Part shown: positions 28,957 to 47,900 of the stretch, in pieces
Layout: each line of letters starts with the position of its first letter
Numbering within the stretch: position 1 is the stretch's first letter
Source of the DNA: Planctomycetota bacterium
GTDB taxonomy: Bacteria; Planctomycetota; UBA8108; UBA1146
NCBI GenBank assembly: GCA_036338595.1
Contig: JAYZBV010000077.1
Coordinates: 11,319 to 75,318, forward strand
Length of the DNA: 64,000 bases
Direction of reading: 5' to 3'
Notes under the pieces: model-generated
What the model saw: only the letters and a program-made list of their open reading frames with translations
Database searches by the model: none
What the model was told of the DNA's origin: nothing
Made by a program: the position numbers and the translations under genes

Positions 28957-28958
28957 GG

Positions 28959-29885
28959 TTACCAGCCTCGGACCTGGAGTCGTTCATCCTCGGGAAGTTT
29001 GGTGGCATCCATTCCCTGCATCGCTTTTGGAAGTCCGCTCGAAGCCTCTGCCAGTTCGACCGCGTCATCGAAATGTGCAGTGGCATGGACGATGGCTGTA
29101 GCAGTCCGTATTGGTTCCTCGGATTTGAATATTCCAGAACCGACAAAGACTGCCTCGGCACCGAGTCGCATCACGAGGGCTGCGTCTGCGGGCGTGGCGA
29201 TCCCTCCTGCGGCGAAGTTGGGGACAGGCAGTCTGCCCTCCTTGGCGACCTGGCACACCAGCGAGTAGGGGGCGGCCAGATCCTTTGCAATGCTCATCAA
29301 TTCCTCGGGACTGGCCTGGGTGATGGCCCGAATCTGGCTGCGGATCAATCTCAGATGCCTGACCGCTTCGGTCACATCACCGGTGCCCGCCTCGCCCTTG
29401 GTACGAAGCATGGCAGCTCCTTCTGCGATGCGGCGTAGCGCCTCACCGAGATTAGTGGCTCCGCAGACAAAAGGCACCTGGAAGCGGCTCTTGTCGATGT
29501 GGTGGGCATGGTCTGCAGGGGTCAGAACTTCCGATTCGTCGATGAAATCGACTTCCAGTGCCTGCAAGATCTCGCCCTCGACGAAGTGGCCGATTCTCGC
29601 CTTGGCCATGACGGGGATCGAAACCGTTTCCTGGATCTCTCGAACCTTGTCCACAGGTGACATCCGAGCGACGCCTCCGTCTCTGCGAATGTCAGAGGGA
29701 ACCCGTTCGAGTGCCATGACGGCAACGGCTCCTGCCTCCTGTGCTGTCCTTGCCTGATCCGCAGTGGTGACATCCATGATGACGCCGCCTCGCAGCATCT
29801 CGGCGAGGCCGACCTTTGTGCGAAACTCATCATCGGACCCGTTGGCTCTCAACGGAGTGGTGGACTGATCGTTCAAGGCTTCCAT
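28959..29885 (-). CDS. pdxS: Pyridoxal 5'-phosphate synthase lyase subunit
   Basis: [50 protein letters not shown] and RGW C-terminus. Start is probably ATG 29885. Confidence 0.97.
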
Positions 29886-30350
29886 CCTCTCTCTCGATGC
29901 AAAGGGTGCGGTGCACCCCCGCAGGCGGAACCCGATATTGCCTCTTCTGCGGTGCAGATGCGAGTGGATCGAGGCCCAGAGAGGCCCTTTCCGAGCCACC
30001 GGGTAGCCGTTATTCTGATGCCAGAACTGCCGGGAATATGGCGAAGATCAGAGGTGCCTGGGAAAGACTCCGGAAATCCCGGAGAAGGGGACCGATATGA
30101 GGCAGACTCCCGGATCCAGTGGCATGTGCTGCTGGATCATCGTCGACAACTCAATTTGTTCGGGGATTCCTTGGTTGAGGTTCGACTGGCCAGGTCCTGA
30201 TGGCTGTCGATTTGCCTCGCTGGGTTCTGTACACCGAGCCAGAAGACCGAAGGAAAAACCCCGACGATGATGCCGAGTTGCTGTTATTCCGCACATGAAG
30301 TCCAGCGCGCCAGGACAGAGACGGTTCGCCTCGCCGGGCCCTCTCCCAGG

Positions 30351-31706
30351 ATGAGGACTCTGACCCTGGCTTCCCTTTCATCACTGGTATTGCTGATCGG
30401 TGGATGGGGACAGGACAATTTGCAAGCGCAGATCTTCGAGCGCGCTCTCGTGCTCGAGGGAGTCCATCTACCCGCACCGGACGGAACGGTGCAGGAAAAT
30501 GCCAACATCATCCTGAGGGGCGGTCGGATCGCCGAGATGGGGCCCGATGCGGATGCTCCAATGATGTCCCGCAAGATGAAGGTCAAGGGGCTCTTTGCCA
30601 CCGCAGGGATGACGGATCTCTTCTCTACCCTGACCCTGGATGCGGTGAGCTCGGCAAGCGCTGTTCATAGTGCATGGGATGGATTCGACCGATACGACTC
30701 GGAACGGATCATGCAGGTGCTCTCAAATGGCGTGACGAGGGTTCACCTGGTTCCGATGGGTGCCGGTGGAATCGTTGGACGTGCCTGTTCTGTTTCTCTC
30801 GGTGAAAGAGAAGGCGGCGGCCATGGGAATCTCGATGCTGAGGATGTTGCGCTCTGTATCGATCTGGATACCGGAACTCCACTGCAAAAGATCCGAACCT
30901 TTGAAAAGGTGAGATCAGCATTCCTTGCTGCGGAGCGTCGCCGCGACGCCTTCGATGATTACTCCAGTGATCTGGAGGAGTACATCAAGGAACTCTCCGA
31001 AGCCGCCAAGAAGAAGGCAGAATCAGAGGGCAAGGAAGAGAAGGGCGACGACAAGAAATCCGACGATGAGGAAGAGAAGGATAAGGAAAAGGACAAGGAT
31101 AAGGACAAGGAAGAGGAGAAGGGGCCCGAGAAACCCGGTAGACCTGAGCGCAATCCCGCCTCCGATATCCTGCTTCAGGCTCTGGACCATGAGTTGCCGG
31201 TGATGATCACTGCCCGAAGGAGCCAGGATTTGCAAAATGCCCTCGACCTGATCGAGGAGTTCGGTTTTATCGCCACGATTCAGGGAGCGGACGAGGCTCA
31301 CCTGATGCTGGAGGCACTGCAAGAGATGGATCATCTGTCGATCCTGCTCGATGTGCCGCGAACTCCGCTCGAGCGGGGCTCTGCTCCTCGTCAGGATGCT
31401 GCACTGATCTCGAGGCTCGAGGATTCGGGGATCGAATGGTCAGTGGCCAGTGGCGGCGAAAGTACATCTCTCTGGAGGTCGATCCAGATGATCGCCGGGC
31501 AAGCCGACGGAACCTCTCCACTTCAACTCGCTCTCGCTCAGGGGGCTCGAGGCCGGGGGGCTGGATGGCTTCGTCGGGGTAGTTCGGAAGTGGTTCTCTG
31601 GGACAAGAATCCGGTGCTGGATCCGCTCGCAAGACCTCAGCGTGTGATCATCGATGGTACCGTCGTCTGGCAGCGGCCGGCCGGCACCCGGGAAGGTAGT
31701 TTTTGA
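30351..31706 (+). CDS. Secreted amidohydrolase-fold protein 1 (metal ligands absent)
   Basis: Signal peptide; IILRGGRIAEMG, AGMTDLFSTL (no HxH), NGVT, acidic/Lys-rich insert, RVIIDG. ORF is open from 30267. Confidence 0.75.
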   Translation: MRTLTLASLSSLVLLIGGWGQDNLQAQIFERALVLEGVHLPAPDGTVQENANIILRGGRIAEMGPDADAPMMSRKMKVKGLFATAGMTDLFSTLTLDAVSSASAVHSAWDGFDRYDSERIMQVLSNGVTRVHLVPMGAGGIVGRACSVSLGEREGGGHGNLDAEDVALCIDLDTGTPLQKIRTFEKVRSAFLAAERRRDAFDDYSSDLEEYIKELSEAAKKKAESEGKEEKGDDKKSDDEEEKDKEKDKDKDKEEEKGPEKPGRPERNPASDILLQALDHELPVMITARRSQDLQNALDLIEEFGFIATIQGADEAHLMLEALQEMDHLSILLDVPRTPLERGSAPRQDAALISRLEDSGIEWSVASGGESTSLWRSIQMIAGQADGTSPLQLALAQGARGRGAGWLRRGSSEVVLWDKNPVLDPLARPQRVIIDGTVVWQRPAGTREGSF

Positions 31707-32860
31707 TGAGAACTCGCCTTCAACGCGGAACCCTGCTGATCAGTAGGCTTGCCATGGTCGGATTTTTACTGCTCGGCCCATTGCTGCTGGCAGCGTCGAT
31801 GGCTGATGACGGTACTTTCGTGATCTCTCCCGTCGGAGTCGTGGGCCCCGATGGAAGTATCTGTCAGCAGATGGCGGTGGTCATCGAGCCTGACGGCACC
31901 ATCGCCGCAGTCATTCCAGCGGATCAGGCAGATCCGAAACTCTCCACCTTCGCCGCCGCATCAGGGGCGGTACTCACGCCGGGCTTACACGATCTGCTCG
32001 GATCTCTGGGTGCCAGGGGTTCCCTGACAGCAGGAACGGTTCTCATCGATAATGAACTGGCTGCTGCGGATGCGTTCGACCCGACAGATCCGGAACTGGA
32101 TCGAGCAGCGAAACATGGTGTGCTCTACAGCACCATCGCTGCACTTCCCGCCGGCGTGCTCAACGGCACCACCGCCACTTTCATCTGCCGAAGCTCCATC
32201 GAAGCCACATCTGTGGCCGCCGGAAAACCATGCTTCGCACTGTCGGGAACCGTTCTCAATTCGTCACGTGAGCCGACCAGCCGCTCGGCGATGGTCTCGA
32301 TCTGGAAGGACTGGCTCAAAAGCGGCGACTCCGCACTTCAGAGCCCCGGAATTCTCTTCTGCCCCGATGCCATCGATCTGCGCCAGACGCTGTCGCTCGG
32401 GTGGAAGTCATTGCCAGTGCTGGTCCACTCCGGAGATGCGAGATCTCCCGTCGGGAGGCTCGCAGGCCGGGATGCGATGATGGTGGTGGGCCCCTTCCTC
32501 GAAGGGGGAGATCCGGCAGTGGTGTCGACCGCGATCCGGGCAGCTCGCACCGGAACGGAGCTCGCCTTCAAGGGTGCCTTCGGTGGAGGTCCTGCAGATC
32601 AACTACGAGGTAGTGCCGCGATAGCCGTGTCCGCAGGACTCGACGGCGATGCAGCCAGACGAGCACTTTTCTCCAACCCTGCCCGGGTCGCCGGTTGCAG
32701 CGGTGTGGGAGTCATCGAGCCCGGGGCTCGCGCAGATCTGGTGCTGTTCTCCACCGACCCACTCGATCCAGGAGCGAAAGTGCTTCAGGTGTGGATCGGA
32801 GGAGTCCAGATGCGCTCGGAGCCCACCGGACACATCCGGCCACTGAAAGGAATCCGATGA
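31706..32860 (+). CDS. Secreted amidohydrolase-fold protein 2 (metal ligands mostly absent)
   Basis: LTPGLHDLLGSL, NPARVAG, GVIEPGARADLVLF..DP and VWIGG; TGATG overlap with gene 1. Confidence 0.78.
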   Translation: MRTRLQRGTLLISRLAMVGFLLLGPLLLAASMADDGTFVISPVGVVGPDGSICQQMAVVIEPDGTIAAVIPADQADPKLSTFAAASGAVLTPGLHDLLGSLGARGSLTAGTVLIDNELAAADAFDPTDPELDRAAKHGVLYSTIAALPAGVLNGTTATFICRSSIEATSVAAGKPCFALSGTVLNSSREPTSRSAMVSIWKDWLKSGDSALQSPGILFCPDAIDLRQTLSLGWKSLPVLVHSGDARSPVGRLAGRDAMMVVGPFLEGGDPAVVSTAIRAARTGTELAFKGAFGGGPADQLRGSAAIAVSAGLDGDAARRALFSNPARVAGCSGVGVIEPGARADLVLFSTDPLDPGAKVLQVWIGGVQMRSEPTGHIRPLKGIR

Positions 32861-34437
32861 AGAAGCAAACCCCGACGAGACAGCCCTCTGGATTCTTCAT
32901 TCCAACTTCGATGGCATGGCTGCTGGCTGTGGTGCTGACCGTGTCGCTGGCTCCTGCAACGAGCGCCGCGGTTGTGGCGGGAGATGCCGAGAAATCGGAA
33001 GTGGAACTGGTCAAGGATGTGACCATCCGTGCAGAGCGTGCGCATATCGGAGATGGACAGATCGTCGAGGACGCTCTGATCGTCATCAAGGATGGCATCA
33101 TCCAGAGTATCGTCAGCGGTGGTGAGGCCGAGTCGGAGGAAAATGTACTGGTCGTCTCTGACATCACACCTGGACTGATCGACGCCAACGCCAGGATCGA
33201 TGTCGCCGATGCGCTTTATTTCCCGGGAGAGGACCCCAGGCTGCAGATTCTCCGGGTGATGGGTCTGGAAGAACATTTCCACGGCGGGGATGTCTGTCCC
33301 TGTGGCACGGTTTGCCCCGCCATGACTTCCCATATCGCCGACGAGATGTGCCTTTACTGCGGTTGGCCCGATCACGACCCTCACCCTCATGATCCAGGCG
33401 ATGAAATCGCTGCGGATGCAATTGCGGGTGATCGAGCGGCTGGAGTGCCCGCTCCCAGTGGAGTCGTCAATGAACAATCGAGTGAGGTCGTGCCTCACTT
33501 CGAGGTGCTCGATGCGATCGATCAGGGGTCGGATGATTTCGACCGATTACTCGAAGAGGGAGTGACGACCATCTATGTCAGCCCCGACTCCTCGGCGGTG
33601 ATTGGAGGCAGGGGGTCCCTGATGAAGACAGGTGGACCCATTGGAGCCAGATACCTGGGAGCCGGTGCGGTCAAGGGTGTCCTTGGAAGCGATGCCTATC
33701 GATACGGTTCGCGTAACCGCAGCCCATTTCGCACGCTGGTCTCCGTCTACACCAGACGCCCCGATTCCCGGATGGGAGTGACATGGGTGTTTCGCAAGGC
33801 GTTCCACGATGCGTTCCTGCGCGCCAGTGGTGTGCAACCCAGCGGCGCGGATACATCCAGTCCCAGTGCCTCGAGAGTGCTCTCGCAGGTTCTCGCGGGC
33901 GAGGTGCCACTGCGGATCCAGGCTCGTACAGCGCCTGATATAGAAACTGCTTTCAGACTGTGCGACGAATTCGGCCTGGATTTTGTACTCGAGGATCCTG
34001 TCGAGGCGTGGAAGCGAGTCGACCTGCTCTCGGAGAGTGGCGTCGATGTCGTGTTCGGGCCGGTTTTTGATGTTCCGAGCGGAATTCTGGCAGGCACCAG
34101 TGAGAGCAGGGGTGCACGTCTGCACACGCTACGTGATCTGGTTTCATCCGGAGTTTCCGTGTCGCTGAGCGCTCAGGACCTCAGAGGTGAGGAGGGGCTC
34201 TCCCGTCAGGTGATGCTGGCGATCCGACATGGAGTCGATCCTGCGATGGCCTTGAAACTGGTGACGCAAAATCCAGCCCGGTTGCTCGGGATCGATGCCC
34301 AGGTGGGAACCATCGAAGCTGGAAAAAGAGCTGACCTGGTCATCTGGAGTGGCACACCCTTCTCCTCTCTGTCACAGATAGAAAAGGTCTACCACGAAGG
34401 TGTGATCTCTTTCATCCGAGGCGGAGCCAATAAATGA
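32857..34437 (+). CDS. Secreted amidohydrolase-fold protein 3 with a Cys/His-rich insert (metal ligands absent)
   Basis: ITPGLIDANARI, EGVTT, NPARLLG and GTIEAGKRADLVIW; ATGA overlap. Confidence 0.8.
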   Translation: MKKQTPTRQPSGFFIPTSMAWLLAVVLTVSLAPATSAAVVAGDAEKSEVELVKDVTIRAERAHIGDGQIVEDALIVIKDGIIQSIVSGGEAESEENVLVVSDITPGLIDANARIDVADALYFPGEDPRLQILRVMGLEEHFHGGDVCPCGTVCPAMTSHIADEMCLYCGWPDHDPHPHDPGDEIAADAIAGDRAAGVPAPSGVVNEQSSEVVPHFEVLDAIDQGSDDFDRLLEEGVTTIYVSPDSSAVIGGRGSLMKTGGPIGARYLGAGAVKGVLGSDAYRYGSRNRSPFRTLVSVYTRRPDSRMGVTWVFRKAFHDAFLRASGVQPSGADTSSPSASRVLSQVLAGEVPLRIQARTAPDIETAFRLCDEFGLDFVLEDPVEAWKRVDLLSESGVDVVFGPVFDVPSGILAGTSESRGARLHTLRDLVSSGVSVSLSAQDLRGEEGLSRQVMLAIRHGVDPAMALKLVTQNPARLLGIDAQVGTIEAGKRADLVIWSGTPFSSLSQIEKVYHEGVISFIRGGANK

Positions 34438-36065
34438 AATCGAGAGTCCCCGGAGGCGAGGAGCCGATGTTTTCGATGAACTTCAATAATTTACGCCCAC
34501 TACCATGGGTCATCGTCACGGTGTTGTTCCTGATGACAACACCGATGGCGCAGGCGAATGGAAACAAGGTTGCTTTCACAGGAGGGACGGTGTTGACCGT
34601 CTCCGGACCTGTCATCGAGGGGGGAGTGATCCTCGTTGAAGACGGCATCATCACTGCAGTCGGCGAAGGGGACACGGAGATTCCCTACGATGCGATGGAA
34701 GTCGACTGCACCGGCATGATCCTGGCTCCTGGATTTGTCGACCCTCACAGTGCGGATGGCCTCGACATTCCCAATGAGAACCTTCCGAAGGCGCCATTTG
34801 TCGACGTCTTCGATGCCATCGATCCATCCAGGTTCTTCTTCGAGGATTCGCTTCGAAATGGTGTCACGACGATTCACGTCATGCAGGGCAACAACTGCGT
34901 TGTCGGTGGTGTCAGTCGCATCGTGCATCCGATCGGACTCTCTCCACATGAGATGTCACGCCAGGCTGGTGTGGCCATGAAACTCTCGACATCTCCTCGA
35001 CAGGGTTACGATCGATTGAGGCAACTCGCAGAGTTGCGCGAGGTGTTCTCGGAATACGACCGCTGGAGAGAGAATCTTGCAGAGAAGCGATTCGAGCAGG
35101 AGGCGAAAAAAGACGACGATCTGGAGCCCTTGCCCCCCGAGGAGGCGCGCCAGAAGGGGGAGGAGTTGATCCGTGATGAAGATCTGGATGATCAGCACCG
35201 CAATCTCGCCCACCTCGTCGATGGACGTCTGGGAGCGTGGATATATTGTGGATCGGCCTCGGATGTGGCTCCTGCGCTGGCCCTCATCTCCGATAGAGGG
35301 TGGCAGAAGAACTCGGTGCTGGTGCTGGGAGGAGATGCCCACCTGGCGGTGAGCGAGATCGATGACTCCAACCTTGCCGTGATCCTCGATGCGGATCTGG
35401 TGTACAGAAAAAGGGACCCCATCCACGGCGAACTGATCGAGACCTTCATCCCGGATATCTACCGCGGTGCAGGGGTGAAATTTGCCATCCAGCCTTCCAG
35501 GACCGGATCGATGCCGGAGAGATTCCTCGGCTACCAGGCAGCTCGCCTGGTCCGCTCGGGAGTGTCTCCAGAAGATGCGTTGCGCATCGTCACTCTCGGT
35601 GCTGCGGAGATCTGTGGCGTCGCGGATCGCTATGGATCGATCGAGGTCGGCAAGGTCGGCAATCTTGTGATGTGGACCGGTGACCCCCTCGATCTGACAT
35701 CCTGGGTCCAGAAGGTCTGGGTCGAGGGCATCCTCGCCTATGATCGTGAAAAGGATGCCAGGCTGGAGAGGCTCTTCCCGGAAGCTGCCGAGGAACCGGA
35801 ACCTCCCGCTCCCCTCGATGATGCCGAAACCTCTGAAGAGGATGGAGATGGCGACTCCGCTGCAGAAGACGGGGATCAGCCGAAGGGTGACGAGGCCGCT
35901 GATCCTCAGCCCTTGAAGGAAAAGTCGACCGAGAAGGACAAGAAAGAGGCTCCCGACAAGAAGCCCGTCCCTCCGGACGACAAGCCGGATGACAAGCCGG
36001 ACGACAAGCCGGACGACAAGCCGGACGACAAGCCGGACGACAAGCCGACGGTCGGAGAGGTCTAG
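34434..36065 (+). CDS. Secreted amidohydrolase-fold protein 4 with an acidic repetitive tail
   Basis: LAPGFVDPHSAD (one His), NGVTT and GSIEVGKVGNLVMWTGDP; ATGA overlap; alternative start at 34467. Confidence 0.8.
   Translation: MKSRVPGGEEPMFSMNFNNLRPLPWVIVTVLFLMTTPMAQANGNKVAFTGGTVLTVSGPVIEGGVILVEDGIITAVGEGDTEIPYDAMEVDCTGMILAPGFVDPHSADGLDIPNENLPKAPFVDVFDAIDPSRFFFEDSLRNGVTTIHVMQGNNCVVGGVSRIVHPIGLSPHEMSRQAGVAMKLSTSPRQGYDRLRQLAELREVFSEYDRWRENLAEKRFEQEAKKDDDLEPLPPEEARQKGEELIRDEDLDDQHRNLAHLVDGRLGAWIYCGSASDVAPALALISDRGWQKNSVLVLGGDAHLAVSEIDDSNLAVILDADLVYRKRDPIHGELIETFIPDIYRGAGVKFAIQPSRTGSMPERFLGYQAARLVRSGVSPEDALRIVTLGAAEICGVADRYGSIEVGKVGNLVMWTGDPLDLTSWVQKVWVEGILAYDREKDARLERLFPEAAEEPEPPAPLDDAETSEEDGDGDSAAEDGDQPKGDEAADPQPLKEKSTEKDKKEAPDKKPVPPDDKPDDKPDDKPDDKPDDKPDDKPTVGEV
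35973..36044 (+). repeat. 12-bp coding tandem repeat (CCGGA[C/T]GACAAG) x6 encoding (PDDK)6
   Basis: Six consecutive units read directly from the sequence. Confidence 0.95.
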
Positions 36066-36066
36066 A

Positions 36067-38799
36067 ATGCGATTTCCGCTGATCCTGATCGGGATCCTGA
36101 CACTGTCATGCGCCCAGCCGGCGGGTGCGCAGAGCGCAGGGGATGACTTCGTGCTCCGTGCAGGTACCGTCCACACGGGGATTCGAGAGATTCCCGATGG
36201 AGCGATCGTGGTCCGCGATGGCAAGGTGGTCGCATCCGCCGCATGGTCGGAACTGCAGGACGATGCCAGTCTCGATCAACTTCCGCTGGTCCACTGGCCC
36301 GATGCCTATGTCACTCCCGGTCTCGTTGCCGCAGCGAGTGGATTGGTCCCTGCGCACTCATCGCCTGAGAGCATCTCCGCTGCTTTCAGAGCCTCGGATG
36401 GGTTCGATCGTTACGGCGACTACCGCCCGCTGTTGAAGACCGGGGTCACCACCGTCCACCTGAGTCCGGGAGAACATCGCCTCGTCAGCGGCCAGGGTGC
36501 TGTGGTCAAACTGGTCGGGGACGCCGACGACCGGATCATCAAATCGAGCTCTGATCTCTCCCTTTCGCTCACCGACGATGTGGATGGTCCGGGTGCTCTT
36601 CTCAAGATTCCATTTCCAGCCTCCAGCGATGTGGCGATCACTGCGCCGGTTCCACAGCGGCCTCGAAGTCGCATCGGCCGTCTGTTGGCTCTCGGTGAGG
36701 CGATCGAGAAATCGACCGAGGATGCTGCAGCCCACGGCGAACTGGCCCAGGCCTGGCAATCGGGATTGCCCCTGAGAGTGGCCGCTCGCAGAGCACCGGA
36801 GATCCTCGCAGCGATCTCCTTCATCCGCGGCAAGGGACGAGAAGGATACATCGTGGGGGGAACAGAGATCGCCGAAGTCTCTCCAGCGCTGGCTGCTGCG
36901 GGAATCCCTCTGGTCCTTCGCATCCAGCTGGTCGGTGGAGATGTGGGATTTTCAGCGAGGGAGCCGATCGAGGGCCTGACCCACTGGCCCGATCTGGGAA
37001 GCGAAGGACTGCTGGCTCTTGCTCCTCCCGATAACGATCTGGCGCTGCTGCGATGGGCGCTGGTGGAAGCAGCCTCACACATGAAGAACCCCGGGGATTC
37101 CATCGCACTGGTGACACACAATGCCGCTCGCATCCTCGGAGTCGAGGATCGTGTGGGAAGTCTGCAAGCGGGTGCAGATGCGGACATCGTGGTCTGGAAC
37201 GAAGCACCGTGGAACATCAGTGCGCACCCACTTGAAGTGGTTGCCGGGGGCAGGAGCGCCTGGCAGCCGCAGGACAGTTCCGCAACGGTGATTCGCGCCG
37301 AAACGATCTGGCTCTCCCCCGAGGTTGCGATCGCTGATGGCGAGATCCTCCTCGAGGATGGAAAGATCGCATCGGTGGGTCGAAGAGTTCCGCACCCTCC
37401 CCATTCAAAGGTGGTCGATGCGGGGCCGGGCAGTTTTGTCGTTCCTGGTTTCATCGACAGTTTCGGTCATCTCGGATTGCGAGGTGATTCTGGAGCTGCG
37501 GGTACAGGGGATCGCCTTTACAGACTGATCGGATCCGCGGATGAACCGGAACACCGGGTAGCGCGTGCGGGTGTAACTTCACAGTTGCTGACTCCGAAGC
37601 GGTTGCAGCGTGGTGCTGCCACTGCAGTGATGGTCAAAACTGCGGGCCGGAGCAGAGCAGATCGTGTTGCCCGGCCAGTGTCTGCGTTGCTGCTGGAAGC
37701 GAGTGGCCATCCGGATGAAGCTCTCGGTGGAATCACGCGATTGCTCGGGCAGGGCCAGAAATACCTCGATTCCTGGAAGAAGTACGAAAAGGAACTTGCA
37801 GAGTGGGAAGAAAAGAAGGCCGCGGGTGAAACGATCGAAGCCAAGGAAGAGGTAGAGGAAGAGGTGGTGGAAGAAGGGGGGCCGGACCCACTCACCGGGA
37901 TCTGGGAATTGACCATCTCTGGCGGCCCACTTCCTGATGCCGAGACGGTTTCGATTTCGATTCAACTCGAAGGAGACAAGTTCGAGGGTCGAATCGTGGA
38001 GCCTATTCCTCCCATTCCGGTGCGGGTGGTGGGAACCCTCTCCGGGACCACCATCGAAGCGACCATCGAGATCGAAGATGGAGTGATTCCAGATACTCCC
38101 AAGATCGAAGCAGAACTGACCGGAGAAGACGCCCTGTCGGGAACCATCTCGGTGATGCAATTCTCTGCGGATGTAATGGGTACTCGCACCAGCAAGGAAG
38201 CCAAGACTTTCAAGGTGGAGCGGCGCAAGAAACGAGACGATGACGGTCGTCCCAATCCGCCAAAGGTCAATCTGGCGATGGAGCCGGTCCGAGATGTACT
38301 CGAGAAGAAAATTCCAGTGGTGGTGACTCCCAGCGGTCTGGAAGTCGCAGCAAAGGTCATCGAGTTCTTCTCGAAAAAGAAGATCCCCTTGACCCTCAGG
38401 CTCGGTCCCGAGATGCGACACTACGGTGATCTTCTGTCGAAAGAATCGGTTTCGGTGATTCTTCCGAAGCAGGTGTCCTATACCGTCAATAGAGAAGAAT
38501 TCGTCCCCGCTACCTTTCTCAGTCGCGCAGGAATCAATGTGGCCTTCCAGAGTCAGGCTTCCGATGGAGCGCGTGCCCTACCCCAGCAGGCTTTGCAGGC
38601 GGTAGAGAGGGGCATGGGAGCCGACGATGCTTTGTATGCACTGACCCGAGGAGCCGCTGAAGCGCTGGGAGCTCAAGATCGAGTCGGATCGATCGAGAAG
38701 GGCCTCGACGCAGACCTGTTGATCTGGAATGGACATCCCCTCGAGGCGGGTAGCACTCTGCAGAGGGTATTCATCGATGGAGAGGAGGTCCCGAGATGA
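36067..38799 (+). CDS. Secreted protein 5 with two tandem amidohydrolase-fold domains (both degenerate)
   Basis: Domain 1: VTPGLVAAASGL...TGVTT...GSLQAGADADIVVW. Domain 2: VVPGFIDSFGHL...AGVTS...GSIEKGLDADLLIW. Signal peptide from ATG 36067. Confidence 0.8.
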   Translation: MRFPLILIGILTLSCAQPAGAQSAGDDFVLRAGTVHTGIREIPDGAIVVRDGKVVASAAWSELQDDASLDQLPLVHWPDAYVTPGLVAAASGLVPAHSSPESISAAFRASDGFDRYGDYRPLLKTGVTTVHLSPGEHRLVSGQGAVVKLVGDADDRIIKSSSDLSLSLTDDVDGPGALLKIPFPASSDVAITAPVPQRPRSRIGRLLALGEAIEKSTEDAAAHGELAQAWQSGLPLRVAARRAPEILAAISFIRGKGREGYIVGGTEIAEVSPALAAAGIPLVLRIQLVGGDVGFSAREPIEGLTHWPDLGSEGLLALAPPDNDLALLRWALVEAASHMKNPGDSIALVTHNAARILGVEDRVGSLQAGADADIVVWNEAPWNISAHPLEVVAGGRSAWQPQDSSATVIRAETIWLSPEVAIADGEILLEDGKIASVGRRVPHPPHSKVVDAGPGSFVVPGFIDSFGHLGLRGDSGAAGTGDRLYRLIGSADEPEHRVARAGVTSQLLTPKRLQRGAATAVMVKTAGRSRADRVARPVSALLLEASGHPDEALGGITRLLGQGQKYLDSWKKYEKELAEWEEKKAAGETIEAKEEVEEEVVEEGGPDPLTGIWELTISGGPLPDAETVSISIQLEGDKFEGRIVEPIPPIPVRVVGTLSGTTIEATIEIEDGVIPDTPKIEAELTGEDALSGTISVMQFSADVMGTRTSKEAKTFKVERRKKRDDDGRPNPPKVNLAMEPVRDVLEKKIPVVVTPSGLEVAAKVIEFFSKKKIPLTLRLGPEMRHYGDLLSKESVSVILPKQVSYTVNREEFVPATFLSRAGINVAFQSQASDGARALPQQALQAVERGMGADDALYALTRGAAEALGAQDRVGSIEKGLDADLLIWNGHPLEAGSTLQRVFIDGEEVPR

Positions 38800-40034
38800 G
38801 GAAACTGACGCTGTTTCTCGTCGCTTTTCTGACGCTGGTCAGTTTCGCCGATGATGTTGCTGCCGCCGATGTCACGGTCTTTCGAGTCGGCAAGATCATC
38901 ACCATGGATGATGATGACCGGGTCATCAACAACGCTGTCGTGGTGGTTGTCGATGGGAAGATCACATCGTTAGGTCGATCACGAGATATCGAGATCCCCG
39001 ACGGAGCAGAGGTCATCGACCGGCCACAACTATGGTTGGTCCCGGGAATGGTCGAGTGCCACAACCACACCGGAGGGTCCAGCCCTGACCTTCACGATTA
39101 CATCTACCTGACCAATCCTGGCCTGCGAACCCTCGAGTCCGTGGTCCCTGACGGTAAGGAGATGGAACGTGCCAGGGCCGGAGGAGTCACCACCGTGCTG
39201 ACGATTCCGGGCAGCGGCAATAACATGTCTGGCTTCGGCACCATCTTGAAGACAGCAGGCACCGGCACGGTCAAGGAAGCTGTACTGAAGGCTCCTGGAT
39301 CGTTGAAGATCGCCCAGGCAGGGAACCCTGAGCGATACTTTTACGGTGTGGGTCGATCCTTCATGAACTTCAATACACGCCAGACCCTGCGCAAGGCGAG
39401 AGACTACCACCTCGCTCGAACGGCGTGGGAAGAGGGGAAACTGGCTGCTGAACCTCCGAAGGATCTTCACTGGGAGGAGTTCCGACCGCTCTTTCGCAGA
39501 GAGACGGTCGCATCGGTGCACACCCAGATTTTCCAGGTGCTGATGACCACCGTGAAGATGGTCGCAGGAGAGTTCGGAATTCGTACCGTGCTCGACCACT
39601 CCACCTTTGACGCCTGGAAGGTGGCGAGGCTGGTCAATGAAGACGAGAGCATCTACACCATCAACGGGCCGCGTCAGATTCACTATGACCGTACTCAACG
39701 TCGGATCATGGGGAATGCTGGGCGCTGGTGGCAGGGAGGCGTGCGACGACTGGGGATCAATACCGACTCTCCGGTGATCCCCCAGGAGGAGTTGTTCTAT
39801 CAGGCAGCGATGGCTTGCTACTACGGCTGGACTCCCTACGAGGCTCTCAAGGGGGTGACACGGATTCCTGCAGAAGCACTGATGATGGACCACCGACTCG
39901 GCAGTATCACGGTAGGCCTGGACGCGGATTTCTGCCTCTGGACAGGCGACCCGATCGATCCTCGTTCATCGTGCGAACTGACCATCATCGATGGCAAGGT
40001 GACCTACGACGCCAGCGGAAAGCGGGTCTTCTGA
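38796..40034 (+). CDS. Secreted amidohydrolase 6 with an intact metal-binding site
   Basis: LVPGMVECHNH (HxH), LKIAQAGNP (Lys), ASVHTQ, VLDHST, GINTDSP (Asp) and GSITVGLDADF; signal peptide. Confidence 0.88.
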   Translation: MRKLTLFLVAFLTLVSFADDVAAADVTVFRVGKIITMDDDDRVINNAVVVVVDGKITSLGRSRDIEIPDGAEVIDRPQLWLVPGMVECHNHTGGSSPDLHDYIYLTNPGLRTLESVVPDGKEMERARAGGVTTVLTIPGSGNNMSGFGTILKTAGTGTVKEAVLKAPGSLKIAQAGNPERYFYGVGRSFMNFNTRQTLRKARDYHLARTAWEEGKLAAEPPKDLHWEEFRPLFRRETVASVHTQIFQVLMTTVKMVAGEFGIRTVLDHSTFDAWKVARLVNEDESIYTINGPRQIHYDRTQRRIMGNAGRWWQGGVRRLGINTDSPVIPQEELFYQAAMACYYGWTPYEALKGVTRIPAEALMMDHRLGSITVGLDADFCLWTGDPIDPRSSCELTIIDGKVTYDASGKRVF

Positions 40035-41374
40035 TGGGTGGTCGAACTCAACTCCTCCCGAGGTGGGCAAGCTGTTTGATGGTGTTGCTGGTTGCACTGC
40101 CAACTCTACCAGCGCAGGCGACTGACGATGCGGATCGTGTCACGGTGATTCGAGCCTCGCGTGTCATCACAGGCACCGGAGAGATCCTTGAACCAGGCGA
40201 AGTTGTTTTCGAGGACGGCAAGATCTCATTGGTTGGAAATCAACTGGAGTATCCCAAGAATGCCAGGATCATCGATGCCCGGGGGCAGACGCTGATGGCA
40301 GGGATGATCCTCGCGCGCTCCAGGCATGGTCTCAGCAATCTTTCGCGAAATGGGATCCATTGTGATTGGTCGCCGTTGCGACAGCTGAATGATCAGGAGA
40401 TGCCCTGGGCTGAATTTCTGGAAGCCGGCATTGTTGCCGCTTCGCTGGTTCCTGCTGGCTCAGGATTTCCAGGACATGCAGTGGTGGTCAACACAGCGCC
40501 CGAGAGTACTGACCGAATCCTCAATGAATCCGCCTTCTTGCCCCTCAATGGAAGAACATCATCTGGACTATACGCCTCGATCGACAAGGCGTTTGGTGGT
40601 GCGAGAGGTGAGATAGAGAAGGTCGAGAAGGCAAGAGAGCAGTGGGACAAGGAACAAGAAGAGGCGAAGAAGAAGGCTGAAGAAGAATCCGGGAAGAAGG
40701 ATGGGGAAGCGGCCGAGGAGAAAAAGAAGGATGGGGAAGCCAAGGATGACAAACCCAAGGAGTTCACCCCACCCGAGATGAATCCTTCGGTCGTCGAACT
40801 GGTCAAGATTCTTCAGGAAAAAGATGACGCTCTTCCGATCGTATTTGATGCGAGCACGCCTGGATTGATCCTTCACTTCGATGCTGCCATGGCAGATGTG
40901 AAGGAATTGAAGGACCGCGACCCGTTGGGGATCTTCATCCTGCCCGGCACTCGAAATGGTGCCTTCCATCAGGTGGTGGAGATGCTCGCCGAACGAAAGG
41001 CCACGGTGTTGATTCCGCCTGGTCTCAGTGCTCTTCCCGATACCTACACGAGGATTTCGATTCCCGTGGCGCTGTCTCGTGCCGGTTGCACTCTGGTGAC
41101 GATACCGCGCACAGACAATCCTGAGGGGATGAGGAACATCCCTGGCATGCTGGCAGAGCTGGTTCGATATGGTCTCAGCCGCGAGGCCGCACTGGCCTCG
41201 GTCACTACCGAGCCCGCCCGGTTGCTTGGACTTGGAGATCGTATGGGAACCGTCGAGGCAGGTAAGGAGCCGCACTTCGTACTCTTCGATGCCGACCCCC
41301 TGGAGCCGGGGGCAAGGGTGATGAAGACCATCATCGCAGGCGAGGTGGTCTGGGATCGAGAGGACAACCGATGA
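40034..41374 (+). CDS. Secreted amidohydrolase-fold protein 7 (metal ligands absent)
   Basis: VVFEDGKI, LMAGMILARSRH, EPARLLG and GTVEAGKEPHFVLF; charged insert; TGATG overlap. Confidence 0.78.
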   Translation: MGGRTQLLPRWASCLMVLLVALPTLPAQATDDADRVTVIRASRVITGTGEILEPGEVVFEDGKISLVGNQLEYPKNARIIDARGQTLMAGMILARSRHGLSNLSRNGIHCDWSPLRQLNDQEMPWAEFLEAGIVAASLVPAGSGFPGHAVVVNTAPESTDRILNESAFLPLNGRTSSGLYASIDKAFGGARGEIEKVEKAREQWDKEQEEAKKKAEEESGKKDGEAAEEKKKDGEAKDDKPKEFTPPEMNPSVVELVKILQEKDDALPIVFDASTPGLILHFDAAMADVKELKDRDPLGIFILPGTRNGAFHQVVEMLAERKATVLIPPGLSALPDTYTRISIPVALSRAGCTLVTIPRTDNPEGMRNIPGMLAELVRYGLSREAALASVTTEPARLLGLGDRMGTVEAGKEPHFVLFDADPLEPGARVMKTIIAGEVVWDREDNR

Positions 41375-42765
41375 GCACGAAAATGAGAGCCTCTCTGGTG
41401 ATGCTGGCGGTCTTCTTCATGGTGACCGACATTCCGATCAACTTCGGACATCGAGTCCAGATGGCCGGAATCTCGGAGGCACAGGACCCGCCACGCCGTC
41501 GCCGGCGTGGGCGCCGACCACCGCCCCCTGCGCCAGCACCTGAACCGGAGAAAGAGGAGACGGAGCCAGAGGATCCCGGTGGCGAGTACCTTGCCATCGT
41601 GGGTGCCACCATCCACACCATCACGGGGCCAGTGATTCGCGGCGGAACCGTGTTGTGCAAGGATGGGAAGATCATCTCCATCGGGGAAGACATCGTGGCG
41701 CCCTCGGATGCTGAAAAGATCGACGCTACCGGACACCATCTCTATCCGGGCCTTGTCGCCTTTCGGTCCAGTGGCCTTGTCGGCTCAGGGGAGCCGGAAA
41801 AGACCCAGGATCCGTTTGCGCTCGGCACGGTGATGGGGCTGGCAGCAGGAATCACCTCGACGTGGAACGGCAGCCGTGTCTGTAAGTTGATTCGAGGCGA
41901 AGTCAGCGACCTGACGCTTCGAAACAAGGCCTTCACCTCGATCAGCTATAACAGCAGGAACCCATCCGGGAAACGCGAACTTCGCGAAGCGCTCGAGAAA
42001 GTCCAGGAACACCTCAGGGAACTGGAACGGCACGAGAGTGACAAGAAGGAAAACCCGGATGCGAAAGCTCCCGACGAGAAGTGGATTCGTGGCCTTTTCT
42101 CTACAGCACGCAATTTGCTGACCGGCAAGAGTATTGCACTGACCCGGGCCTCGACCATCTACGATCTACGTGAGGTTTGTGAGCTGGCCAGGCGGTTTGA
42201 ATTCGAGATGGTCATCGAGGGAGCTGAAGAGGCATGGATCGAACCCGGAGTGCTGGCGCGCTGCAGGGCATCCGTGGTGTTGACTCCTCGTAGTCGCCGA
42301 GACCGGGATGAGAGCCGTGGGGCTGCAGGGGGATCCAGCATCGAGAATGCCAGGATCCTGTACGAGCATGGAGTGCCCGTGACCATCATGCCGGGCAGTC
42401 GAGGAATCGCCTTGTGGGGTCTCGCAGGCCGGGATCTGTCGCACCTACCCCTGGAAGCGGCATTTGCCGTCAGAGGTGGATTGTCTGAGGATGTGGCGGT
42501 GCAGTCGATCACCATCGAACCCGCACGTCTGCTCGGAGTGGCGGATCGAATCGGGTCGATCGAGGTGGGAAAGGATGCCGACTTCATCATCATGGATGGC
42601 GACCTCCTCTCGTACATGTCTCATGTACGGTGGGCTGTCATCGACGGCAAGATCCAGTACGACAAGGCTGAAGAAGGCCTTCTGGATCACATACGCCCCG
42701 CCGGTGAAGATGAACCCAAGCCTCCCGAAGACCACTGGCCGCGTCGACTCGGAGATCCTCTCTAG
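41371..42765 (+). CDS. Amidohydrolase-fold protein 8, probably exported (metal ligands absent)
   Basis: VLCKDGKI, LYPGLVAFRSSG, AGITS, EPARLLG and GSIEVGKDADF; Arg/Pro-rich N-terminal linker; ATGA overlap. Confidence 0.8.
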   Translation: MSTKMRASLVMLAVFFMVTDIPINFGHRVQMAGISEAQDPPRRRRRGRRPPPPAPAPEPEKEETEPEDPGGEYLAIVGATIHTITGPVIRGGTVLCKDGKIISIGEDIVAPSDAEKIDATGHHLYPGLVAFRSSGLVGSGEPEKTQDPFALGTVMGLAAGITSTWNGSRVCKLIRGEVSDLTLRNKAFTSISYNSRNPSGKRELREALEKVQEHLRELERHESDKKENPDAKAPDEKWIRGLFSTARNLLTGKSIALTRASTIYDLREVCELARRFEFEMVIEGAEEAWIEPGVLARCRASVVLTPRSRRDRDESRGAAGGSSIENARILYEHGVPVTIMPGSRGIALWGLAGRDLSHLPLEAAFAVRGGLSEDVAVQSITIEPARLLGVADRIGSIEVGKDADFIIMDGDLLSYMSHVRWAVIDGKIQYDKAEEGLLDHIRPAGEDEPKPPEDHWPRRLGDPL

Positions 42766-42854: not shown

Positions 42855-42915
42855 GGTAGAACCTTTTCTCCTGCTGTCACGGGAGGAATTTTCCCTCGTC
42901 TCGAAGGACAGTTCG

Positions 42916-44973
42916 ATGCCATCCATCCCCAGCCGATTGCCACTGGTGAACCTCCGCATGGGGGCCCTGGTGGCACTGCTATTACTGGCTGGTTTTGCCC
43001 CGGTTCAGGGCCAATGTGCCACCGGAGAGATCGAGTTGTTTGGCGTCAGTGCAGGGGATGGTCTTGGCCGATCAGTGGCCATTTCGGGTGGGCGAACCTT
43101 CATCGGAGCCGTAGGTGATGATGATGGTGGGCTGCTCAGCGGCAGCGTGCGAATTTTCCAGCGAAATTTGAGTGGCTATCAACTCGAAGAAGTATTGGTC
43201 GGACAGGCGGGTAGCCAGCTCGGCTCCTGCCTCGCGGCAGACGGCAAACTTCTGGCGGCAGGTGCCTCGGGTGCCGGGGCGGTAGAGATGTGGCGTAGAG
43301 ATCGCCTCCAGTGGACCCAGATTCAGGTACTCAGTGACCCGCAGGGTCAACCAGGAGACGGTTTCGGCACCTCACTGTCACTGCACGGCGACCTGCTGGC
43401 TGCAGGAAGCCCCTATTTCGAGACCGCCCAGGGTCAGGTCGGCTGTGTCACTCTCTGGAGATTCGACTCCGCGGTGGGGTGGGAGTTGCAGGAGAGATTG
43501 CTCGCTACCGATCGTGTTTCTGGGGATCAGTTCGGTACGGCGGTTTCGCTCGCGGATGGATCCCGCTTGCTGATCGGTGCGCCAGGTAGAGATTTTCTCG
43601 GATCCGATACCGGTTCAGCGTACCTGTTCACCGGTGGAACTGACGGTTGGGTCGAGGAGTTTGACATCGGCACCGGGGCTTCTGCACCTGGTGATCGGCT
43701 GGGAACCTCGGTCGCCATCTCGGGACAGCATCTGCTGCTGGGGTCGCCATATTCGGACATCGCGGGTCCTGATGCGGGAGCGGTCGTCAACTATCAACGG
43801 GTCGGAGACATCTGGGTTCTCGGATCTCATCTGGTCCCACCTTCTGGTGCCAGTGGGTGTGCATTCGGAGCGGTTCTCGATCTCGATGGGAACCTGTTGA
43901 CGGTGGGGGCTCCCACCGATACCGGTGGCGAAGCGTTTCCAGCCGGCTCCGTCTCCGTCTATCGCTGGCAGGGAAACTGGCAACTGGTGGAATCGCTGAC
44001 AGGAAACTCCAGTTCCTTCCTCGGTAGTTCGATAGCCGTGCATCGTGGCGTTGTGATCTCGGGTGCTCCCTTCGATTCTACTCTGGCACCTGTTGGCGGA
44101 AACGCCGTACTGGTGGTTCATGGAGATGAGGATTGCGATCTCGACGGGGAGCCGGATTCATGCTCGATAGCCTCAGGGCTGGTCGAGGATTGCGATCTGG
44201 ACGGTGTCATAGATAGTTGCGGGATCTCGCAGGGACTGTCGATCGACTGTGATGGAGATGGCATCCCGGATTCCTGCGCAACGCTGGAGGGCACCGTTGC
44301 CGATTGCGATGGGGATGGAGTTCCCGATATTTGCGCCATCGATTCAGGCCTTGTCACCGATTGCGATGGCGACGAGATCCCCGATGTCTGCCAGGTGGAT
44401 TGCAATCAGAACCTGATCCCGGACGCGTGCGAGATCAGCCAGGATGGATTCCTCGATTGCGACAGTGATGGCTTGCTCGATATCTGCGAACTTGAGACGG
44501 GAAGTGAACCCGATTGCGATGCCAACGGAATCATCGACAGTTGCGACCCCGATTGCAACGGCGACGGAACACCCGATGAGTGCGAGTTCCTCGAAGGAAT
44601 GGCGGAAGATTGCAACAGCAATCACATTCCAGACGAGTGTGACCTTGCAGAAGCGAACAATGACACCAACTCGAACGGTCTGCTGGACTCCTGTGAAGCT
44701 GGTTTCATTCGTGGTGAGGCAGATGGGGTTGAAGGAGTTGGAATCTCCGATGCGATGCTACTGATCGCAAGGGTATTCGGCGATGTTGCGATTCCCGATT
44801 GCCCGGAGGCCGCAGATGCAAATGCGGATGGTTTGCTGGACATCTCTGATGGACTGTATCTGCTCTACTATCTTTTCATGGGCCAGCCCGCACCCGTCTC
44901 TCCCTTTCCGGAATGCGGGATCCTACCTGTTGATGCGGTATTCAACTGTGAGATGCATCCGTCTTGTCCCTAG
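42916..44973 (+). CDS. Secreted FG-GAP repeat beta-propeller protein with Cys/Asp-rich repeats and a C-terminal dockerin-like module
   Basis: Repeats of (F/L)G.SVAIS...GAP...G; about ten DC(D/N)xDGxPDxC units; C-terminus FIRGEADG...DANADGLLDISD...CG. Confidence 0.8.
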   Translation: MPSIPSRLPLVNLRMGALVALLLLAGFAPVQGQCATGEIELFGVSAGDGLGRSVAISGGRTFIGAVGDDDGGLLSGSVRIFQRNLSGYQLEEVLVGQAGSQLGSCLAADGKLLAAGASGAGAVEMWRRDRLQWTQIQVLSDPQGQPGDGFGTSLSLHGDLLAAGSPYFETAQGQVGCVTLWRFDSAVGWELQERLLATDRVSGDQFGTAVSLADGSRLLIGAPGRDFLGSDTGSAYLFTGGTDGWVEEFDIGTGASAPGDRLGTSVAISGQHLLLGSPYSDIAGPDAGAVVNYQRVGDIWVLGSHLVPPSGASGCAFGAVLDLDGNLLTVGAPTDTGGEAFPAGSVSVYRWQGNWQLVESLTGNSSSFLGSSIAVHRGVVISGAPFDSTLAPVGGNAVLVVHGDEDCDLDGEPDSCSIASGLVEDCDLDGVIDSCGISQGLSIDCDGDGIPDSCATLEGTVADCDGDGVPDICAIDSGLVTDCDGDEIPDVCQVDCNQNLIPDACEISQDGFLDCDSDGLLDICELETGSEPDCDANGIIDSCDPDCNGDGTPDECEFLEGMAEDCNSNHIPDECDLAEANNDTNSNGLLDSCEAGFIRGEADGVEGVGISDAMLLIARVFGDVAIPDCPEAADANADGLLDISDGLYLLYYLFMGQPAPVSPFPECGILPVDAVFNCEMHPSCP

Positions 44974-47900
44974 AGGGTCACCAGTTCGCCGCTCTTGACC
45001 AGCAACACACGGCAGTCGATCCTGTCCATTTCAATTCCCCAGGTTCTCGAGACTGCCAGCTTGTAACTCTCCATTTGATCGGCGTGTTTCTCCGCGGTCT
45101 GCTGCGATGATCCATTGATCTGATCCGTCTTGAAATCGATCACCTCGGCTGCCACCGATCGCCCATCTCGTTCCAGAATCACCAATCGGTCGATGATGCC
45201 ATTCAGCAGGTCGTCTCCCGTGTTGCAGCAGAAAGGTACCTCTCGTTCCAGCACCAATTGATCGCCATCACGCTTGCCGAGTCTCTGCTCCGTTTCCGCT
45301 CGGTCAAGTGTTGCCCGCAGCCCTGGCTCCTGCACCGCTTCGGTGAGTAATTTGACTGTCTCCTCGATGAAGGGAGACAGCCGAGGGTACTCCCTGGAGA
45401 GAAGTTCCTCGATGTCCGGAGGCAAGTCTGCTGTCCACTCGAGTTGTTCGAATGCAAGGTGAACCAGGGTGCCGATCGAGCGGGCACGAAACGACGCTTC
45501 GCTGGAAAAGATCGCAGAGTGTTGAGAAGGAGTTTGAACAACACCGACCGAGGGGGTCGACAGTTGTGGAACCTTCGCCTCCTGCGAAAGCGTCTCTGGC
45601 TCTCCGGGGATCAGTGCCGGACAGCCGGCATCTCCTCGCTCGTAAAGAGTGGCGCCCGGCGTGAGGGGCTGCCCCTCTCCGAGGGTATGCAGAAGTAGAT
45701 GCGCAGCGGATGCTTCGGGAGGTTTTTTCGCGGGGAGAATCATGATCAAGGATCGTCTCGCCCTGGTCATCGCTACATACATGACACTGAGGGCTTCCTG
45801 TAGCTGAGTCTGGCGAGCCTGGCGATTCATCTCGAGATACGGTTCGCCAAGGATCTGCCGATCCCGTTTGGAGATGTAACGGCTGATCCACCGTTCCCCT
45901 TGAGGATCAGTGGTCGCCCTGCGCTCGAGCAACTTGGGAAGCACCTTGAACCAATCGGGAGCCAGCTCGGGAAGGATCACCACATCCCTTCCAAGGCCTT
46001 TCGCCTGATGCACCGTCATCACCTCGACCCGGGATCCACTCGGGGATGAGAGGTGATGAGTGCGCAGGTGAGAGATCAACTCCTCCAGGCGGCAGCCGCT
46101 AAATCGCCGGATGTGGATCTGCTCCATCATCTGACGAATTCTGACCCTGTCCTCTGGCGAACAGATCTGCGCCAATCCCTCGGCAAGGGGAGCGATCGCC
46201 TCGGTGATGCCCAGCTGGTGGATGCGGCTGCGCAGGGTATCCGAGATTTCTCGGGCGATCTGAGGATCGTTCCAGTCGCCGTCAGGATACCCGCCGATGC
46301 TCCGTGCGACCTCTGGCAGTGGCGAACGTGCCACGGCAAAGCGCATCGTCGAGTCTCCTGGATGCTCGACCAGTTCCAGCAGCGCGACCAATCTGCCCAC
46401 TGCTGGAGAATCGACCAGGGGGTTGCCGCCCTCCTCACTGGCATCGATACCTCGTTCCCTGAGCGCTGCCACCATCCGGGCGATGTTCTGGTTCTTGCGC
46501 ACCAGTATCGCGATGGAGCACTCGGTCGAGATCCCGATGATTCGCTCCACTTCATCGATGGCATCGATGTAGGGGCAGACTGCGATCTCGCGGTCGGGGT
46601 GTTGCTGGGCGACCTTGAGGACGATGTGTCCTGGAGCATCTCCAGGACCACCGGCGGCACTGACATGATCATGAAAATTATCGCCCCAGTTACTGATGGC
46701 CTGGCGGTCGGTGCCGAGCCAGCCCGCAGGTGGAAGGCTGCCAAATACCGTGTTGACGCCGTCGAGGATCTCCGGCGAGGAGCGGTACGACTCGTCGAGG
46801 GTCTGGTCCGATCCTGGTTTCAAGAAATCCTGAAGCAGGTCGAGCACTTCTGCTCTGCCTCCCCGCCAGCCGTAGATCGCCTGTTTTGGATCCCCGACAC
46901 AGAAGATCGATCGACCGCCATCGGAATCGCTGGCGACTTCCTCGATGAGTGGGCGAAGTGCAGCGAACTGCAACAGGGAGGTGTCCTGGAACTCATCGAG
47001 CAGCAGGTGACGCGTCGAAGCGTCGAGCCGATACAGGATGGTGTCTGCGGAGGCGAGAACGCTGGCGACCGCCAGAGCCTGAGGAATATCCTGAAACGCT
47101 ACGCCGCCTCTGGTGTGCATCCCGATGCGTCGGAATTGATCGTAACTCGCCAGCAGATCACGGGTGGCGATGTTCTGGGCGCGGATCGTGCCCGAGATGT
47201 GGGCTCGCGCCATCTCGATGATGAGTTGTACCGAGATGTGGATTCTCTCGGGGATCTCGACGCGGTCGAACTTCGGCTCGCCATTGAGGACCGCCAGAGC
47301 CAGCCCGGATTTGAACAGGCCCAGCGCATCGGCTCCGTTCGGGTCATCAAACCACGTGCCCAATCGGGCCAGCGCCCCCTCCCAGTTCTTCTTCGGAGTT
47401 CCCGCCTTTGTCAGCGGACACGCCACTGAATTGAAGAGGTCCTGCACCTTTTGAACTCGTGCATCATCCGGCCTGGTACACATCTGGGGGTTTTGCCACG
47501 CCGAGTAGGGAAACTCGATGAACTTGTCATGGGCGTGGGAGACGATCTGCTGCAGTTGATCCGCCACCTGACTCGTTGCCTTGCCACGGCTCAAGCGGTG
47601 CATCAAGATTCGCGCATCGACCTGGCTGCCGACCGACAGGATCTGCTGGATGGCTGCCGCCTGCACCGCTTCTAGCTGGTCCTTCTCCAGGATGGTCCAG
47701 CCGGGGGGTAGCCCGCACTCGAAGGTATGGGCGACCGCAAGCCGTGCAAAAAATGCATCCAGCGTCGAGACGCCACAACGATGCAACTGGTCGACGAGTC
47801 CTCTGAGGGCGACCTCGATCTGCGGGGAACTGGCAGGCTCGAAGCCCGCCTCGACGAGCGAGTCTTGCAGTTGTTTCAGTGCCTCTGGATCGACCGTTGC

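Follow-up and report, generated by a model that had tools for sequence, protein, structure and literature searches.

The analysed window comprises 64,000 nucleotides (nt) from the genome of a Planctomycetota bacterium (GCA_036338595.1, contig JAYZBV010000077.1, positions 11,319 to 75,318 of the forward strand). On its plus strand, at 30267-42765, it carries eight abutting genes that encode nine amidohydrolase domains, two of which are located in gene 5 (5N and 5C). A complete set of metal ligands was found in only one of the nine domains, that of gene 6. From gene 1 to gene 8, the genes overlap by 4, 4 and 4 nt, are separated by a 1-nt gap between genes 4 and 5, and overlap again by 4, 1 and 4 nt; from the overlaps of 1-4 nt, co-translation of the eight genes in near-equal amounts may be expected. 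Pfam amidohydrolase matches were obtained for seven of the eight genes, twice for gene 5 and not for gene 1, and all eight open reading frames (ORFs) are intact, with no internal stop codons. A terminator-like hairpin, which is a consensus match only, is located 100 nt past gene 8 (42865-42888, +). The scan for such hairpins revealed 11 sites versus 7.9 expected, and the promoter scan 1 site versus 3.0 expected.

Gene 6 (38796-40034, +) is the sole intact binuclear-type amidohydrolase of the cluster. The ligand scheme of M38 enzymes, given in the available part of PMC11511702 as H-x-H, carboxylated Lys, His, His and Asp, is present on strands 1, 4, 5, 6 and 8 in the form of H89 (codon at 39060), H91 (39066), K171 (39306), H242 (39519), H268 (39597) and D324 (39765). 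In the phmmer alignment, these residues fall on the H, H, K, H, H and D of the Protein Data Bank (PDB) entry 3OOQ. The full ligand set of gene 6, which a preliminary description of this DNA had read from the letters alone, was thereby confirmed, and all 13 motifs listed there were found in place, including ECHNH (39054-39068), LKIAQ (39303), SVHTQ (39513), LDHST (39591) and NTDSP (39759). Among the solved structures, 3OOQ comes closest to gene 6 (E 3e-41; next solved amidohydrolase 1.4e-14) and also to gene 5 (E 5.5e-75). The AlphaFold2 model of gene 6 (predicted local distance difference test score of 88.5) matches 3OOQ with a Foldseek template modelling score of 0.83 and with a Z of 43.0 and a root-mean-square deviation of 2.7 over 366 residues (VIA), the next entry having a Z of 25.2.

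Alignment and model place the gene 6 product in a 3OOQ-like subfamily, closer to 3OOQ than to the other solved amidohydrolases, and predict the TIM (triosephosphate isomerase) barrel and beta-sandwich fold of the amidohydrolase superfamily, binuclear M38 type. The site would contain two metals bridged by carboxylated Lys171 and would hydrolyse amides; judged by the structural relatives, the substrate is most plausibly a small peptide or an N-acyl amino acid. The scores of gene 6 are far under the cut-offs of the named M38/COG1228 families. Assignments as Xaa-Pro dipeptidase (NF051886, 72.4 bits versus a curated cut-off of 500) and as imidazolonepropionase HutI (TIGR01224, 34.1 bits versus a curated cut-off of 298) were rejected. 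A separate HutI-like gene is located elsewhere in this genome, by eye beside a urocanate-hydratase-like gene.

The other eight domains all align to gene 6 in profile-profile comparisons (8/8, hhalign probability 100 over 355-394 columns), and the paralogous domains of the window are about 22-27% identical to each other in long pairwise alignments. Of the six ligands, domains 1, 2, 3, 4, 5N, 5C, 7 and 8 retain 0, 1, 1, 2, 0, 1, 1 and 0, respectively. The eight segments that had been named as substitutes for H-x-H lie in the genes to which they were attributed and on the same strand-1 columns of these alignments. The dead domains are not wholly empty. The proposed division into one catalytic subunit and seven pseudoenzymes agrees with the sequence, but the number seven applies to genes and has to be read as eight for domains.

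Gene 1 (30267-31706, +; probable start at 30351) is an amidohydrolase-fold pseudoenzyme with a long Lys/Glu/Asp-rich insert. Its C-terminal motif is degenerate, as had been described, and it is the only gene without a Pfam match. Gene 2 (31703-32860, +) encodes a pseudoenzyme with one remaining ligand, the His on strand 6 (H242 in its own numbering), the register of which was placed by eye, as hhalign had mis-registered that segment. Gene 3 (32857-34437, +) keeps the Lys (K273) and has invariant Glu and Arg residues. In the loop behind strand 1, this pseudoenzyme contains a Cys/His-rich insert (33205-33450, +) with two Cys-x-(x)-Cys groups and 5 Cys and 7 His in the counted segment, which has no match in the Pfam search and is possibly an added metal-binding module. 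The insert is lineage-specific, being present in near relatives, variable in order-mates and Phycisphaerae loci, and missing from most distant loci. Gene 4 (34434-36065, +), a pseudoenzyme with the first His (H105) and the Lys (K183), encodes the best conserved of the dead domains and a charged, low-complexity tail; near its end (35970-36047, +) this tail carries tandem Lys-Pro-Asp-Asp repeats with a 12-nt unit, which form a shorter stretch in the nearest relative.

Gene 5 (36067-38799, +; frame open from 35989) encodes two fused pseudoenzyme domains, of which 5C keeps the second His. Domain 5C includes an insert of about 110 residues (37876-38208, +) that is beta-rich by eye, has no match in the Pfam search and is missing in several distant relatives. 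A look-alike of it, again by eye, joins the dead and the live domain of the C86 protein of the same genome (see below). The two remaining pseudoenzymes are encoded by gene 7 (40034-41374, +), which keeps the strand-8 Asp (D361) and has a charged insert, and by gene 8 (41371-42765, +), the C-terminal third of which is highly conserved.

For comparison, related loci were fetched, 30 of them from gene-6 matches, 15 from relatives, 40 phylum-wide (among the best gene-6 hits) and 80 from metagenomes; one distant match (L031, 41% over 64 residues) was excluded from all counts. Using position-specific profiles, the domain order 1-2-3-4-5N-5C-6-7-8 was recovered in every locus that shows at least two domains (161/161). 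Since L001-L086 had served to build the profiles, in part according to position, it is the 75 metagenome loci that test the order independently. All nine positions are present in 95 loci (69 after dereplication), and the order is shared by lineages with 35% identity between their position-6 proteins. The records with a gene 6 that is 80-95% identical are mostly labelled Planctomycetota, and those with 57-59% include Phycisphaerae. One locus with a 95% identical gene 6 (L001) is labelled Bacillota; its cluster and flanks match Planctomycetota loci, so that it is probably a mislabelled bin. In the Atlas, Planctomycetota are the commonest source, and one cluster of 828 amino acids (aa) is assigned to Verrucomicrobiota. 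A search of the plasmid collection returned 9 weak single-gene matches and did not find the cluster.

Among 301 sampled Planctomycetota genomes, positions 6 and 8 are both present in 78 (about a quarter) and both absent in 216, whereas position 6 occurs alone in six and position 8 alone in one. For one of the six, position 8 is present in the fetched locus, and in two the contig stops after position 7. Presence was defined by E <=1e-119 for position 6 (84 genomes) and E <=1e-80 for position 8 (79 genomes), both thresholds being placed where the score lists show a gap. Some of these genomes had contributed rows to the queries, and kin among them are not independent. The cluster is retained in marine genomes of about 3 Mb.

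The ligand columns were compared in all fetched domains, with a tolerance of one column for the last four ligands. The strand-8 columns of positions 3, 5N and 8 and the strand-5 and strand-6 columns of position 2 were assigned manually, which makes them less certain, and one L053 fragment broken by a run of N was left out of the per-copy comparison of ligands and loops. Position 6 is complete (6/6) in all 192 scored copies (193 found). Of the copies of the other positions, one of the 1006 scored (1034 found) is complete, and the difference between 192/192 and 1/1006 across relatives indicates that the ligand contrast is not due to chance. The highest numbers of ligands in a single copy are 2, 6, 2, 3, 2, 4, 4 and 1 for positions 1, 2, 3, 4, 5N, 5C, 7 and 8, respectively, position 2 being complete in 1 of 110 scored relatives.

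Position 6 is also the only one that is duplicated. In the 139 loci where both of its neighbours are seen, it occurs once in 117, twice in 18, three times in 2 and four times in 2, i.e., in 2-4 copies in 22 loci, whereas no other position is duplicated in the 161 loci. In six loci compared, the tandem copies are 36-70% identical. Four tandem intact paralogues, which are 37-62% identical, were found in L047 (4453-9713) and in L048 (8841-13975). All position-6 copies keep the six ligands, whereas the loops near K171 and H242 differ, as would be expected for variants of specificity. Fusions join neighbouring positions: 5N and 5C are fused nearly always, 1-2-3 in L039-L041, 1-2 in L042, L067, L083 and L157, and 7-8 in L064, and 4-5N-5C lie in one frame in L010. 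Position 6 is fused in none of the profiled loci.

The dead domains are under purifying selection. Their ratios of nonsynonymous to synonymous substitution rates (dN/dS, Nei-Gojobori) amount to 0.02-0.34 in 80 of 80 computable values, versus 0.012-0.125 for gene 6, and a relaxation of selection, which had been raised as a check on the degenerate genes, is not seen. These values come from ten pairs of close loci, with three further values from an eleventh pair; saturation affected one value, and one truncated locus lacks two of the genes. Between the window and its nearest relative, dN/dS is 0.115-0.198 for the dead domains and 0.074 for gene 6. General frameshifting of the dead-domain genes, the other check that had been suggested, was not found in the fetched loci; domains of low coverage are few and nearly all located at contig ends or gaps, and position 1 is split in L010. 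Gene 6 is the most conserved domain (mean identity of 0.47 versus 0.27-0.40 for the other positions). The number of polar residues conserved at >=85% is 38 for position 6, 13 for position 3 and 16 for position 4, and only 3, 3 and 4 for positions 1, 2 and 7, respectively. Eighteen loci were chosen for a FastTree phylogeny of 172 domains, in which positions 3, 4, 6, 7 and 8 form pure clades and positions 2, 5N and 5C form clades for 17 of the 18 loci; these position-wise clades suggest that the nine-domain set predates the divergence of the sampled lineages. The cluster is a fixed set of ancient paralogues that have been kept together under selection.

Of the 354 first-in-ORF domains in which the anchor motif was found, 332 follow a hydrophobic stretch (Kyte-Doolittle value of >=2.0 over ten residues), versus 4 of 78 internal fused domains. 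The measure is a heuristic and not SignalP; for three amidohydrolases of the cytoplasmic type from this genome, it gives 0.6-1.5. The eight genes of the window all pass this test, and no Tat or lipobox pattern was found in them. Export of the gene products to the periplasm by Sec is likely on this basis.

The combination of live and dead domains is not restricted to the cluster. Among 120 long homologues, classified by the H-x-H pattern alone, the dead-live-dead type accounts for 49, the live-dead type for 18 and the dead-live type for 10; Acidobacteriota, Ca. Aminicenantes and Ca. Saccharicenans are among the few that are named. The same genome contains a live-dead gene pair (G000:C109:9980-12564) and a dead-live fusion (G000:C86:1-3754) followed by a dead gene (C89:98-985), the two contigs of the latter being joined because C86 ends in the same peptide with which C89 starts. 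From the fusions in the homologues and from the pair and the trio of this genome, the association of a live domain with dead copies appears to be a habit of the subfamily, of which the nine-position cluster would be the extreme form.

Upstream of the cluster and divergent from it, pdxS and pdxT (vitamin B6 synthase) are located at 28384-29999 (-). Directly past the terminator-like hairpin, a secreted-looking protein with FG-GAP repeats (Pfam) and Asp/Cys-rich repeats is encoded (42916-44973, +), the C-terminal segment of which we take to be dockerin-like on the basis of a motif. It is followed by an AddAB/RecBC-like pair consisting of a PD-(D/E)XK nuclease gene and a UvrD-helicase-nuclease gene (44970-50869, -). 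The pdxS/pdxT genes upstream and the helicase-nuclease genes downstream recur in near relatives only and are not shared across the phylum, which led to the rejection of a link between the cluster and either vitamin B6 synthesis or DNA repair. Further genes in the window encode a stand-alone ketoacyl-synthase-like protein with a long insertion and weak Pfam scores (26636-28273, -), a fused 4Fe-4S/NrfD membrane subunit followed by a molybdopterin oxidoreductase (50971-55349, +), and an iron cluster of FeoB, a DtxR-type repressor and a ferritin-like gene (15622-20640, +). Three ORFs of 259-396 aa had no match in the Pfam search (4093-5283, +; 17741-18694, +; 60816-61595, -).

Since one position keeps the metal ligands, the other eight domains are likely the non-catalytic frame of an exported multi-subunit enzyme. 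The preferred explanation, which the genomic data make fairly probable, is that of an exported hetero-oligomer in which pseudoenzymes occupy eight fixed positions and the subunit at the one catalytic position is replaceable. The eight gene products would be exported and would together form a single enzyme of mixed subunits, with the eight dead domains in fixed, non-interchangeable positions around the catalytic one. The catalytic position could probably be filled by alternative paralogues, and position 6 would supply a two-metal amide-hydrolysing site of the isoaspartyl-dipeptidase type. Such an enzyme may have arisen from a 3OOQ-type homo-oligomer by duplication, after which single positions would have lost catalysis one by one while remaining indispensable for assembly. 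One particle with a replaceable catalytic subunit predicts a fixed number and order of the dead positions, fusions, coupling and duplication of the live position. More tentatively, the eight dead subunits might build the chamber or gate of an exported nine-position particle, the substrate range of which would be set by a plug-in catalytic position with 1-4 alternatives. It is conceivable, with the same reserve, that this particle would be an ancient bacterial counterpart of the proteasome design in a different fold. The analogy to the proteasome and the exosome had been drawn in the preliminary description, and it stands as a resemblance in logic but not as homology.

Several points weigh against the hetero-oligomer. 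Assembly is predicted from the genetic pattern, and the nine domains match none of the octamer, dodecamer or ten-chain counts of the relatives. The extra copies of position 6 bring the number of domains to 9-12, which fits one particle only if the copies alternate. All loci were recovered via gene 6, many of them are near-duplicates, and related genomes are non-independent observations. Furthermore, the cluster is split into positions 1-5 and 6-8 in one genome (G182, where positions 6-8 lie on one contig, preceded by 10 kb of different DNA, and position 5 is matched on a second contig), position 8 is located elsewhere in another (G076), position 1 was not resolved as a clade in the tree of 172 domains, and among the neighbours sought across the phylum none that hints at the substrate is shared. 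The near-invariant polar residues retained at positions 3 (13) and 4 (16) could be used for ligand binding or other chemistry, and binding or gating roles are therefore most plausible at these two positions. Finally, position 2 has all six ligands in L077 (5442-6686, +) and five of six in L064 (14227-15399, -). These two proteins may each provide a second active site and may reflect the ancestral state; position 2, and perhaps 5C, was thus probably once active and has decayed in most lineages. A single active position, as originally claimed, is thus true of this window but not of all relatives, which have 1-4 intact position-6 copies and, in L077, a complete position 2.

Whether the dead domains need a common particle at all has to be weighed against a looser arrangement, in which they are separate exported ligand-binding proteins, or a few small independent pairs and trios, that catch related substrates or pass them on to gene 6. 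The many invariant polar residues at positions 3, 4 and 8 would suit it, as would the two- and three-domain units in which the subfamily also works and the fact that the operon can be split in two. However, repertoires of binding proteins normally vary in number and order, whereas no dead position is duplicated or permuted in the 161 loci, and no transporter gene is conserved beside the cluster, which makes this arrangement rather unlikely. It is unlikely, too, that some of the supposedly dead domains catalyse other chemistry with one metal or none and that the cluster forms a multi-step hydrolytic pathway. Position 4 keeps its His in 107 of 126 and its Lys in 111 of 126 scored copies, together with an invariant Asn-Glu pair, position 7 keeps its Asp in 109 of 143 and 5C one His in 101 of 142. 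On the other hand, the leftover ligands are scattered and missing in many lineages, as in slow decay, and positions 1, 2 and 7 have 3, 3 and 4 conserved polar residues compared with 38 at position 6.

That the proteins form a polymer or cage as a structural part of the cell envelope, with the hydrolase site being secondary, is considered quite unlikely, as position 6 is the most conserved position, has the lowest dN/dS in 6 of the 10 pairs and diversifies by duplication, which would suit a specificity module. For such a structure it can be argued that eight ninths of the 12.5-kb cluster are non-catalytic and yet retained in marine genomes of only about 3 Mb, that positions 1, 5C, 7 and 8 carry long charged inserts, and that CRMP proteins use the amidohydrolase fold as non-metabolic homo- and hetero-tetramers (PMC10153444, available part). 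The loss of catalytic residues and the split of position 1 in L010 could also be taken to mean that the seven ligand-less genes are functionless, decaying duplicates. This is refuted by dN/dS values far under 1 in 80 of 80 cases and by an order that is preserved between lineages with position-6 proteins of 35% identity.

The nearest solved relative of genes 6 and 5, 3OOQ from Thermotoga maritima MSB8, the title of which names no substrate, has the same six ligands. It consists of one sequence in ten chains, whereas the cluster encodes nine divergent domains, eight of them without metal site, with signal-peptide-like leaders. The M38/COG1228 enzymes isoaspartyl dipeptidase, Cc2672, Sgx9260c and PmAcy share the metal site with gene 6 and resemble it in fold (Z 23-25); in the available part of PMC11511702, the M38 relatives are homo-octamers or a dodecamer, and they are described as homomers with every subunit active. 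The live/dead fusions of the subfamily join one H-x-H domain to one or two ligand-less domains, but comprise two or three domains and not nine fixed positions. CRMP/DPYSL proteins, which were matched in the structure-sequence search with gene 5, are amidohydrolase-fold proteins that are not known to have hydrolase activity. Unlike the cluster products, they are animal cytosolic proteins of the dihydropyrimidinase branch and have no catalytic partner in a fixed position. Homo- and hetero-tetramers of CRMP proteins are described in the available part of PMC10153444.

In the 20S proteasome, the core of the RNA exosome and plastid ClpP/ClpR, a homo-oligomer has evolved into paralogous subunits, most of them inactive, and the immunoproteasome has exchangeable catalytic subunits. 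These systems have unrelated folds and are demonstrated complexes, whereas the present one is bacterial, likely exported and deduced from its genes. A description of the cluster was not found in the literature, which was searched mostly at abstract level and with most subscription papers outside the scope. The available parts of two papers on metal-dependent bile salt hydrolases (PMC13081902, PMC13081988) do not mention 3OOQ. The cluster is real, conserved and undescribed in the literature searched, and it extends the theme of heteromers built with pseudoenzymes.

For the annotation of these loci, it follows that eight of the nine labels "imidazolonepropionase-like amidohydrolase" are probably wrong in designating an enzyme. 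If the complex exists, it would show, in a form unusually elaborate for bacteria, how a homo-oligomeric enzyme became a heteromer of mostly dead paralogues. Systems with one, two, three and nine domains, as well as positions with four to six ligands left, are all present in the databases, and because these intermediate stages are preserved, it can be tested directly why such complexity arises and persists. As the cluster occurs in about a quarter of the sampled Planctomycetota, small marine genomes included, it is likely the sign of a function, in the envelope or in nutrient scavenging, that has gone unrecognised.

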